Assembly: GCF_016026235.1 (NCBI RefSeq)
Contig: NZ_CP065613.1
Source of the DNA: Escherichia coli
Lineage (GTDB): Bacteria > Pseudomonadota > Gammaproteobacteria > Enterobacterales > Enterobacteriaceae
Strand: one strand, 5' to 3'
Length of the DNA: 64,000 nt
A program made the position numbers. Of this stretch, positions 60,801 to 63,800 are shown piece after piece (within the stretch, counting starts at the first letter, position 1; each line of letters begins with the position of its first letter).

Positions 60801-63800
60801 CGGTAATGTCTCCAGCACCTGCACGACCGCTTTTGCCCAGATGGCAAACTCCCGTCTGACATCACTGGCCGGAATGAGTTGTGCCGTTTCCTGTTCGAAC
60901 TTAAGACGCTCACGTTCAGACTGATACCAGGCTTTGCGCTCATGCGCGTCCATTTCGCCTTCTGCAACCGGCGGTGGTAATGCCAGAAATGCCGACACAA
61001 TATCAACCACCCGATAAAGCTTGAGGTTGCTTTCATGCCCCCTGCAACGGGTAGATTTTGCAGCCTTGCCGCAGCAGTCTGGCGATGTACACCTGACAGT
61101 GCCGCCAGTTGACTGATATTCAGCGTCAGATTTTTTAACTCTCGATCCATACCCGCTCCAGAATGTTTTAAACATGCATCTTGCGAACAACTTTAGGCAA
61201 ACGGTGTTAGTGATGAACAAAAAACAATCAAAACCGACAGCACAAAAATAAAACCACTGTAATATCAATACATTACAGTAGTGGTGATGACGAATGAAAT
61301 TTCAAAAACTAGCCTTTTTCCGCGCCGCTCCCGCCCCGTGGCAGGCCACCCCACCGGGAGGACCCGTCAGCCTGACAGCCATGACGAACGTCTGATACAG
61401 CGCCCTGCATGAATGACATCGGGATAATCCAGAAAGGAATAGCATCGTACCCACAAGAATCAGTGTAAGTGTCCTGTTTCTTCCACCCCCGCACAGGACT
61501 GGCGAGCATGAGGGACAAACCCGCGAACCATAAACGCGGTAAAAACCCGGTGTGCATCGTTTTTGATTATTCCCGCACACTCGCGCAGAAGGAGTTCCCC
61601 GTCGGGCTACGGTCATGGTTAATGCGGGAATACAGCGACGATACAGCGCATGATGTGTCAGGCCTGAATACCTTTATCCGTTAAAAGGGATATCAGTTAA
61701 GTTATCCCGTGTAGGGTATAAGCCATTATCAAGCCCACCCGTAGATGGACTTTGTAATGGATAGCTGTTGCTCAGTTCTCGTAATGCTTTGATTTTTCCG
61801 ATAACGCAGTTTTGCGTTTGCCATCAGCACGCGATATCGAGAGTCAACTGCAGTTGCTCGCGCCAGTACTCGACATTTGCTTCAATAACCGGCTTATCCC
61901 ATCGCCAGCGAGCCATCTCTCTTGCCCCATTGCTGGCTTTTGATTTCCGGTCATCGCGAATGCGACATGCTTGCTCATATTTCTGCTGCTCAGTCAGTTC
62001 ACCGCGAAGCAGACTATCAATGTGCAGGTCGCACCATACGGAGAATTTCGGATCGCACCATCTTGCAAAGGCAACTGATAACTTTGGATGCTGCCATGTT
62101 CCGCCGCCCCTGTCCTTTCGTGCCTTGCTTGTTTTTACATACCCGGAATCACGGGTATGTAGAATTTTCGATGGTTCACCTGAATAAACCTCATCCAGAG
62201 CTCTAACGTATTCGAGAGTTTCAGCGTTGGACAACCAGTGATCCAGACGCTTCCCGAAACGTTTTGCAATATCAGTGGCATTAATCCAGCCATCAGTATT
62301 GAAGCGGATAGGTTCGCCTTTGTAATTCAGTGGAACGATATTCATAGCGTCTTACCTTTTAGAAAGATGAGCCTGTTCGCACAGAAAAGCCGCCCCGAGA
62401 TGGTCGCCACCATATACGGCAGTTCTCAGGCTCAGCTTTCTGAAAGACTCGGGATTGTTACGCGCTGCGATGCGCGGTTTACTGCGGACATATAAAAGCC
62501 CCGCAAGTGCGAGGCTCATTAAATTGACTTTGTGATTTGCAAAAAAATTATTTCAGGCATTGCGTCCTGATGTATTCCTGCAGGTAGTTAACCTGCGCGG
62601 TTATCCTGTCGATTCCACTTCGGAGACGGTAATAATTGAGTTCAGCATCTGCTGTAAGTCCTGGGCTTTCTCCATAGCCCATGCTGCTGGCTCCGGTCGT
62701 TGACTTTGCACAGGTGGCGGCGACTTGCAGGCGCTTACGACCAGCAGAAACATCAGCACGGAGACTTTCGATAGTCGCGTTAGCATCAGCAAGCTCCTTT
62801 GTGTATCTGGCGTCGAGTTCTGCTACATCACGTTGACGCTTCTGCATATCAGAGATGATGGATGTGGCCTTATCGCGCTGCTCTTTGTAGGTAATGGCGT
62901 TATCACGGTAATGATTAACAGCCCATGACAGGCAGACGATGATGCAGATAACCAGAGCGGAGATAATCGCGGTGACTCTGCTCATTGATCTATCCCCCAA
63001 CAGGCTAATGCGCTTTCCTGGTCACGACGAATAACCTGTCCATAGCAGTTATTTGAACGTATGCGGCAATCGCGCCCAACATCTTTTATCCACCAGCGAA
63101 TCGCCTCGCATGCGCCCTTACGATCACCGGCATTCAGCCGCTTATAAAACGTCGACGGGAAACACTTACCGGGGCCAATGTTATAGGGGCAAAATGACGC
63201 TATACCCGCTTTTTGTGGTTCGGTCAGTGGTACTTTAATATTGCGCTCCACCCATGCCAGCGCCTTATCACGTTCAATGGCGTTAACCTGGTCGCATTTT
63301 TCCTTCGACAGTTTCATACCGGGAAAAACGGGTTTACCATCCACCATCGTGGCACCCCGACAGATGGTCCAGATGCCGGAACCATCGCGGTATGCCGTAG
63401 TGTGGTTACCTTCTTTTTCATCCAGAAACTGGTCGAGAATATCAGGCGCAGGCGCACCGATAGCAATCAGTGCCAGAACGGCAGCCGACAGGCCATATCT
63501 GATTTTTACGTTCATGGATATTTATCAGGATTTATCGGCTTCAAATCCCCGGATATGTTAAATCTTACCTCGCCAGTGATGGGCACTGGCGGGAGGAGGA
63601 TGTCAATCTGATAAACACAGAGGTGACTACGGATTACACAAATCTACCAAAACAAACTTTTGCTGATTTAATCGCACTCAGGCAAGCAGTCGTAGCTCTA
63701 ATCAACTTGTTGCCGGAGAAGGAAAAGGAATTAGTTAAAGCGCTTCTTAACAGAACTGCCGCCGATTTTTCATCATATCCACTGACAGATGACCTTGCGG

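Follow-up and report, generated by a model that had tools for sequence, protein, structure and literature searches.

The stretch between Rz and the terminase genes

We analysed a window of 64,000 nucleotides of Escherichia coli DNA (NCBI RefSeq assembly GCF_016026235.1, contig NZ_CP065613.1) and, within it, the stretch of a prophage that separates the lysis gene Rz from the gene of the small terminase subunit (TerS). The window is this whole length of DNA, and all positions are counted from its first letter. With a probability of about 0.88, the sequence indicates that the stretch forms the packaging-site region of a prophage of the lambda-like cos type, with a KilA-N moron and a candidate structured element lying upstream of the site. 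Part of the 2-kb region was matched in 4346 of 5426 complete E. coli genomes.

The minus strand is the reading direction of the prophage. The features are given below in this direction, followed by the flanking genes; positions in the cos site are also given in bp from the left end.

62496..62517, minus strand: hairpin 3' of Rz that resembles an intrinsic terminator (terminator scan; RNA fold -15.4 kcal/mol, z = -4.6)
61765..62490, minus strand: KilA-N cassette with a leader of ~140 nt, the open reading frame (ORF) and a trailer of ~60 nt; boundaries approximate
61824-62345, minus strand: KilA-N ORF, 173 aa (Pfam: PF04383)
61673..61765, minus strand: two neighbouring hairpins on the 5' margin of the conserved block of non-coding DNA (inverted repeats)
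61467..61651, minus strand: conserved element of ~185 nt with covarying structure (covariance model)
61359..61365, minus strand: predicted cosQ heptamer GGGTCCT, the packaging-termination subsite (identity to lambda and to the phage 21 record)
61320..61341, minus strand: predicted cosN, the nicks of which would bracket the 12-nt GGGCGGGAGCGG, 61336 down to 61325 (alignment to the lambda ends)
61287..61319, minus strand: AT-rich spacer, counterpart of lambda I2 (bp 18-50 from the left end)
61253..61282, strand not assigned: AT-rich palindrome within cosB, bp 55-84 (inverted repeat and IHF consensus)
61151..61300, minus strand: putative cosB, the presumed TerS binding region, which stops at the TerS start codon (bp 187)
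60657..61150, minus strand: small terminase gene, DUF1441 (Pfam: PF07278), ATG at 61150, frameshifted
58555..60657, minus strand: large terminase gene, lambda gpA family (Pfam)
58346-58582, minus strand: small ORF of 78 aa without a Pfam match, then the portal gene
62548-62985, minus strand: Rz (Pfam: PF03245)
62982-63515, minus strand: lysozyme gene

Late transcription would pass the Rz hairpin, the KilA-N cassette of ~725 bp, the two hairpins and the ~185-nt element in this order. It would then reach cosQ, cosN with its predicted 5' overhang GGGCGGGAGCGG, the I2-like spacer, cosB and the TerS start codon at bp 187.

A first-pass annotation of the window had placed a KilA-N ORF of 173 aa between Rz and the small terminase gene, followed by a long stretch with no convincing ORF. 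It pointed out a GC-rich segment and an AT-rich palindrome in this stretch and expected the cos site there, although it could not identify a lambda-type cosN. The ORF is confirmed by its match to the KilA-N family, the GC-rich segment is present at 61320-61345 and the palindrome is present with arms at 61253-61263 and 61272-61282. The expectation of a cos site in this gap was borne out, with a lambda-type cosQ and a lambda-type cosN both found, and the GC-rich segment itself, read on the minus strand, is the cosN that was said not to be identifiable.

The predicted cos site

In the window, the minus strand reads ...GACGGGTCCTCCCGGTGGGGTGGCCTGCCACG/GGGCGGGAGCGG/CGCGGAAAAAGG, in which the slashes mark the predicted nicks; a longer reading of the site is ...CTGACGGGTCCTCCCGGTGGGGTGGCCTGCCACG GGGCGGGAGCGG CGCGGAAAAAGGCTAGTTTTTG... 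The true ends of the lambda genome (NC_001416) are ...TTTACGGGTCCTTTCCGGTGATCCGACAGGTTACG and GGGCGGCGACCT CGCGGGTTTTCGC..., and aligning the two at the nicks sets ...TACGGGTCCTTTCCGGTGATCCGACAGGTTACG/GGGCGGCGACCT/CGCGGG of lambda against ...GACGGGTCCTCCCGGTGGGGTGGCCTGCCACG/GGGCGGGAGCGG/CGCGGA of the window. The matching core is ACG/GGGCGGGAGCGG/CGCGG in the window and ACG/GGGCGGCGACCT/CGCGG in lambda. The first six bases of the overhang (GGGCGG) are those of lambda, and the differing positions are 7, 8, 9, 11 and 12 (GAGCGG in the window vs CGACCT). In lambda-like phages natural variation is found at bp 7-12 of cosN, and conservation in its left half, in the CG pairs of the nick positions and in the 7-bp cosQ (Feiss and colleagues, PMC4669245). 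Because the right-half positions differ, a search with the exact lambda 12-mer fails, and the first-pass annotation missed the site for this reason and because it lies on the other strand. By its sequence, the flagged GC-rich segment is a lambda-type cosN.

The cosQ heptamer GGGTCCT is found 22 nt upstream of the predicted nick. In the curated record of phage 21 the same heptamer is annotated as cosQ, 23 nt from the right end. The combined pattern GGGTCCT-N17-22-ACGGGGCGG occurs once in the 64 kb and in none of 100 shuffles. Over bp 18-50, the A+T content of the spacer is 73%, which is the lambda value. At position 12 of the cohesive end the window has G in place of T; the G variant was also found in about ten loci of IMG/VR, and the cohesive end with the final G is, among the sequences compared, a minor allele.

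Furthermore, the ends of related phage records fall at the predicted position. The record of phage cdtI (NC_009514) begins with GGGCGGGAGCGTCGCGGAAAAAGGCTAG (starting GGGCGGGAGCGT) and finishes with ...GGGTCCTTCCGGTGGGGTGGCCTGCCACG (ending ...CCTGCCACG), so that it is cut at the predicted base. Phage mEp213 and Klebsiella phage Kp4865-4 carry GGGCGGCGCGCT at the equivalent position, and this sequence is given as the putative cos of mEp213, with attribution to Vahanian et al. 2017 and M. Feiss, in PMC12315714.

Mosaic junctions were studied in a sample of 80 IMG/VR loci that encode a small terminase of the window type. Homology to the window stops at cosQ (61365-61369) in 25 of these loci and at the nick (61336-61340) in seven. 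GGGTCCT and its spacing are invariant beside the unrelated DNA in the junction loci. In a group with 87%-identical TerS, cosQ, cosN and the I2 spacer are unchanged, and the sequence departs from that of the window between about bp 37 and the start codon. That cosB diverges together with TerS is expected if this DNA is a TerS-specific cosB. The cos call is thus based on identity and spacing relative to lambda, on the termini of related records and on mosaic junctions at cosQ and cosN.

Some further relatives add to the comparison. Fels-1 has CACG/GGGCGGCAGCGG/CGCGG 177 bp ahead of its TerS gene (about 3334 of the fetched locus), and no exact GGGTCCT was found upstream of this cosN-like sequence. 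In Citrobacter phage Chris1 the exact cosQ and cosN patterns were not found in the fetched stretch. The genome of phage Ayreon (MF807953) carries an insert of 141 bp precisely at cosN, which holds a fragment of the small-terminase gene (~127-411 of the locus). A gap filler was applied by its authors, who chose the start of the genome arbitrarily (PMC5764929), and the insert is probably a gap-filling artefact at physical DNA ends. The defects of the Ayreon and mEp460_4F5 assemblies at cos are as expected at physical DNA ends and point weakly in this direction. A coding sequence annotated in Ayreon as 'putative late gene regulator' spans the 141-bp insert. The record ends of mEp460 and Ayreon were dropped as evidence for cos, as both genomes were opened arbitrarily at the small-terminase ORF (PMC5764929). 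The locus UViG_2778261579_000007 of IMG/VR has a second copy of cosQ, cosN and spacer about 1.1 kb downstream of the TerS start (~4191-4262), followed by a cdtI-like cosB; this could reflect tandem elements or a satellite that carries cos.

Between the spacer and the TerS gene lies the putative cosB. The two arms of the palindrome are complementary at 10 of 11 positions with 8 nt between them, and in cos coordinates they span bp 55-65 and bp 74-84. The fold of the palindrome has z = -4.7. In lambda, R3 is located at bp 50-65 (PMC9026076). The start codon of Nu1 is at bp 191 in lambda and that of TerS is at bp 187 in the window. Between and across the arms, TATCAATACATTA matches the IHF consensus WATCAANNNNTTR exactly, at 61263-61275 on the plus strand (bp 62-74), and on the same strand there is an A-tract 9 nt upstream of it. 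We take this arrangement of IHF consensus and A-tract to resemble that of the attP H' site. In cdtI, the IHF-consensus sequence TATCAATAAATTA is found at bp 64 despite differing flanks. IHF consensus and inverted repeat both fall in bp 55-84, at the position of lambda R3, in a region that co-varies with TerS. The palindrome may form the IHF-bent core of cosB, the arms being candidate contacts of TerS.

The large terminase subunit (TerL) matches GpA_ATPase (Pfam: PF05876) with an E-value of 9e-72 and GpA_nuclease (Pfam: PF20454) with 7e-84, and is 24% identical to lambda gpA (BLASTP E 3e-18). As a member of the gpA family, it is the enzyme expected to nick cosN. No similarity between the DUF1441 small subunit and Nu1 was found by BLASTP. 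A gpA-type TerL together with a DUF1441 TerS fits a conserved cosN and cosQ, recognised by TerL, beside a different cosB. Cleavage at cosN and the binding of IHF and TerS at cosB are predictions by analogy with lambda: the DUF1441 TerS would bind cosB, aided by IHF bending, and would place the gpA-family TerL, which would nick cosN at positions 12 bp apart; at the next cos, cosQ would be required to complete packaging.

The TerS gene of the window is frameshifted. One G has been lost from a G6 run (plus-strand C run 61038-61042), so that the gene has 494 nt and that of 569R4 has 495 nt, the one gap between them falling in the G run. Its two halves lie in two overlapping frames, each of which matches PF07278. 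TerS is intact in all relatives retrieved (80 IMG/VR loci and the phages 569R4 and Ayreon), and the frameshift is either a recent inactivating mutation, which makes the gene a pseudogene, or a homopolymer sequencing error.

Several points weigh against the assignment of a cos site. The nick is 22 nt away from cosQ and not 23 nt as in lambda and phage 21, and the set of three R repeats of lambda was not found in cosB, which has a single inverted repeat and one weak direct repeat. Taken by itself, the IHF consensus is statistically unremarkable, with five matches in the window against 2.2 expected, and the palindrome with its T run also satisfies the pattern of a terminator. Moreover, the start of the cdtI record may be measured or only inferred, and the termini of the mEp460_4F5 record are 4 nt off the predicted nick, with 3 nt missing inside cosN. 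In the fetched stretch of Gifsy-2, the TerS of which is 47% identical, the exact cosQ and cosN patterns were not found; its cos may be more diverged. With TerS frameshifted, the site may also be unused by the prophage's own enzyme. To our knowledge, there is no phage with exactly the cohesive end GGGCGGGAGCGG for which the ends of the virion DNA have been determined.

A different reading of the gap is that it encodes a small protein. ORFs of up to 104 aa can be called mechanically in 61151-61823, and two were tested in 30 distinct homologous sequences, one of 82 aa (61309-61557, minus strand) and one of 71 aa (61469-61684, plus strand). Both are broken by stops or frameshifts in about one third of the homologues, which argues that the gap is non-coding and upholds the view that it holds no convincing ORF. 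The 104-aa ORF, which overlaps this DNA in a different frame and lacks a Pfam match, was rejected as a gene. RefSeq/PGAP leaves the corresponding stretch unannotated in an E. coli locus with 93% identity. The candidate for a gene is the 82-aa ORF, which is annotated in mEp460 as gp59 (134-382 of the fetched locus), matches PHROG 17397 with 1.5e-50 and is intact in about two thirds of the distinct relatives. Against this, the broken copies have in-frame stops at codons 9-10 or indels of 1-2 nt, and the intact copies differ mostly by amino-acid changes. Both cosQ and cosN lie inside the ORF, which would therefore be cut in virion DNA. PHROG 17397 was itself assembled from such annotations and has no known function, and PGAP does not call the ORF. 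A protein-coding gap is highly improbable, and gene calls that run across cos, mEp460 gp59 and PHROG 17397 among them, are probably spurious.

That the GC-rich segment and the palindrome are instead transcription signals, such as a terminator ahead of the terminase genes, with packaging directed from elsewhere or by a headful mechanism, deserves hardly any credence: the palindrome with the run UUUUAUUUUU does fit a terminator-like pattern and its fold is stable, but TerL has both gpA domains, which is typical of 5'-cos phages, the cosQ-cosN pattern is unique in the window and agrees in sequence and spacing with lambda, phage 21, mEp213 and cdtI, its position coincides with record termini and mosaic junctions, and the hairpin arms are lost in the cdtI-type and 87%-identity cosB groups, in which the IHF core and the T-rich tract are kept.

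The conserved element and the KilA-N cassette

Upstream of the predicted cos site, the ~185-nt element matches its covariance model with 225 bits. Copies were found in lambda (46867-47037, between bor and lambdap78), in phage 21 (41541-41709) and phage 434, in 933W-like Stx phages such as PA28, in Salmonella phage SPN3UB and in the DLP12 prophage of K-12 (579008-579179, between borD and ybcV). The element is common to phages with quite different packaging modules. There is no RNA or small RNA (sRNA) annotated at the DLP12 copy in K-12, and the element is unannotated in the records examined. Distant copies were not found in Gifsy-2, Fels-1, Chris1, Kp4865-4, mEp213 and cdtI; only SPN3UB was matched.

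All 126 IMG/VR loci with the element have it in sense to the late operon, which implies transcription during lytic growth. In all of them it follows Rz, whether or not bor or KilA-N is also present, and is followed in turn by p78 or by the terminase genes.

The covariation was counted in an alignment of 33 distinct copies, which were aligned by the covariance model. In this alignment 95.3% of the cells pair, and 16 of the 39 pairs have compensatory, two-sided changes, compared with 5.7 +/- 1.7 in shuffles (0/500) and with 4-13 pairs in controls with slid partners. Further pair types number 42 vs 30.9. The alignment was fitted to the structure model and the copies are fairly close, with a median pairwise identity of 76%, and these counts have to be read accordingly. 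SPN3UB has changes in three successive pairs of P1, an 11-bp helix, and in several of the 3' hairpin, with pairing kept. The middle hairpin is formed by at least five different stems at one position. One-sided changes on the sense strand give G.U 128 times and A.C 20 times. Run by itself, RNAalifold also finds P0, P1, one small hairpin and some of the 3' hairpin, and the loop GGAAGAAAC is nearly invariant. The minimum free energy of the window copy gives no significant z-score against shuffles, whichever strand is folded, so the case for the element rests on covariation.

Rfam 15 gave no match at E-values up to 1 over 58000-64000, and over 61140-61830 only chance-level matches to eukaryotic snoRNAs were obtained (E 3.5-6). 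A full-text search did not find the sequence of the element printed in the literature. The known prophage sRNAs of enterohaemorrhagic and enteropathogenic E. coli were rejected as its identity, as they occupy other positions; PasB was compared by position and not by sequence. AgvB and AsxR are located at a moron site downstream of PR'/Q (PMC4104026), and the Pas RNAs are found near holin or among structural genes (bioRxiv 10.64898/2026.05.13.724894).

There is in our estimate an even chance that the element is an undescribed functional structured RNA motif of lambdoid late transcripts, which would act in cis 3' of the lysis cassette. It could, for example, be a processing or stability element that parts the lysis mRNA from the morphogenesis mRNA, or a protein-binding site that acts through the invariant GGAAGAAAC loop.

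The opposing possibility is that the element has no function as an RNA and owes its conservation to recent common descent, to a role at the DNA level as a recombination linker between modules, or to remnants of the control regions of bor and lambdap78/ybcV, which are antisense morons. We regard this as possible but somewhat doubtful. The interval that separates bor from p78/ybcV in lambda, phage 21 and DLP12 corresponds exactly to the element, which fits such remnants, and the absence of excess folding stability, the close relationship of most copies, the fitting of the alignment to the model and the missing sRNA annotation in K-12 are in line with the same possibility. On the other side, the compensatory changes exceed both the shuffled and the slid-partner controls, and in SPN3UB both sides of at least six pairs in P1 and the 3' hairpin are changed and still paired. 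The alternative stems of the middle hairpin, the excess of G.U over A.C on the sense strand and the helices recovered unaided by RNAalifold point the same way. Furthermore, the element is kept, and always in sense, in loci without both bor and p78, the window included.

Directly 5' of the element are the hairpins I3 (61723-61760; -20.2 kcal/mol, z = -5.2) and I1 (61674-61721). This two-hairpin module (61673-61765) is separately common to phages of the HK620, HK75, mEp234 and ST64T type, where it is found directly 3' of the lysis genes with 88-95% identity.

The KilA-N protein matches PF04383 over residues 7-114 (E 1.5e-23; 83.1 bits vs a cutoff of 23.8) and has a weak Pfam match to ORF11CD3. 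Among the PHROG families it matches PHROG 129, annotated as 'transcriptional regulator', with 7.6e-58, and residues 118-170 match the C-terminal part of PHROG 518 (Rha-like). A search of the PDB by sequence did not find a solved relative, and neither this search nor PADLOC or NCBIfam added anything decisive on the protein.

Phages that are otherwise syntenic differ in having or lacking the cassette that holds the gene (~725 bp, ~61765-62490), and in this the cassette behaves as a moron. In mEp460, Ayreon and 569R4 it is absent, and the Rz terminator is joined directly to the block from ~61760. A homologue of the hairpin 3' of Rz is found in these three relatives, and the hairpin marks the left junction of the cassette. 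E2348/69 has a Rha-family gene in the KilA-N slot, and 61724-62400 is 99% identical in the Salmonella phages SPN3UB, SE1 and others. The moron proposed by the first-pass annotation is well supported by these comparisons. Of the two observations that it had named as speaking against its account, a clear cos match was indeed found, but the KilA-N gene is not a conserved part of the late region, being present in 19 of the 126 loci that carry the downstream element. A 55-aa ORF (62352-62519, minus strand) starts within the hairpin 3' of Rz and occupies the leader of the KilA-N gene; its PHROG match is marginal (E 0.007) and it is probably not a gene.

The KilA-N gene is co-oriented with the late operon, and a consensus scan of the minus strand did not find a sigma-70-like promoter for it, so late lytic expression is the simplest expectation. 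A strong hairpin 3' of the gene (61720-61765, z = -5.2) has no T run. The gene would probably be read through by Q-modified polymerase.

Judged by its domain, the protein may be a DNA-binding regulator or an antirepressor-like protein. Domain shuffling among KilA-N, Bro-N and Rha proteins was reportedly described by Iyer, Koonin and Aravind in 2002, and the protein of the window agrees with it. It is rather unlikely that the protein is instead a toxin or an abortive-infection or defence effector. The KilA-N family takes its name from KilA, a lethal protein of phage P1, which counts towards such a function, as does the position of the gene in a moron hotspot. PADLOC also gave a weak match to the candidate system PDC-S22 (E 2e-6) over 30 residues only, but this match is confined to residues 75-104 within the KilA-N domain. 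Moreover, the best PHROG annotation is a transcriptional regulator, and the C-terminus is common to Rha-like regulators.

Significance and comparison with known systems

The finding is mostly an ordinary one, a lambda-type cos of a known kind and a moron of a known type, and the ~185-nt element may be the one item that is new. For annotation it is useful to know that the gap left unannotated upstream of terminase genes of the DUF1441 type corresponds to the cos site. Knowledge of cosN, cosQ and cosB gives genome start coordinates and the junctions of cohesive-end recombination. It also helps to predict which defective prophages a helper terminase could still mobilise, a proposal made for Sp4 and Sp14 (PMC2669165). 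The frameshifted TerS beside an intact cos is a case of possible helper mobilisation. If the frameshift is real, the prophage would need a TerS of the same specificity in trans, as was proposed for Sp4 and Sp14 of O157 Sakai (PMC2669165). If the element is a real RNA structure, lambda and the other records examined would hold a conserved element that has gone without annotation, and lambda offers a direct test of it.

The site shares with lambda cos the cosQ heptamer GGGTCCT, the flanks ACG/.../CGCGG, the left half GGGCGG of the cohesive end, the implied stagger of 12 bp, the AT-rich spacer with 73% A+T, the gpA-family large subunit and a nearly equal start of the small terminase (187 vs 191). 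It differs from lambda in the cohesive end's right half, in the distance to cosQ (22 vs 23 nt), in having DUF1441 instead of Nu1, in a cosB with an inverted repeat round an IHF consensus and not three R repeats, and in a TerL of 24% identity.

The phages with DUF1441 terminases, namely cdtI, mEp460, Ayreon, mEp213, Kp4865-4 and Fels-1, have the same cos architecture as the window. With cdtI, the record of which opens with GGGCGGGAGCGT, the window shares cosQ, the spacer and I2 and also an IHF consensus, located at bp 64 in cdtI. Identity to the window is ~95% across the whole 590-bp block in mEp460, Ayreon and 569R4. The cosB sequences of cdtI and of the group with 87%-identical TerS differ from that of the window, mEp213 and Kp4865-4 have the cohesive end GGGCGGCGCGCT, unlike the window, and the TerS of the window is frameshifted.

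Among the prophage sRNAs AgvB, AsxR, Esr41, STnc100 and the Pas RNAs, the likeness to the element is that they are non-coding and have conserved positions in lambdoid prophages. The element of the window differs from them in being longer (~185 nt) and in lying between the lysis cassette and cos, and those of these sRNAs that are present in Rfam gave no match to it at E-values up to 10.

The KilA-N cassette resembles other late-region morons, such as lambda bor, Rha-family genes and the KilA-N genes of P22-like and other lambdoid phages, which are cassettes present or absent in the same slot between conserved flanks. Copies of the KilA-N cassette in distant phage backgrounds are 99% identical, and its protein combines a KilA-N N-terminus with a Rha-like C-terminal region. 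Unlike lambda bor, the KilA-N gene is co-oriented with the late operon.

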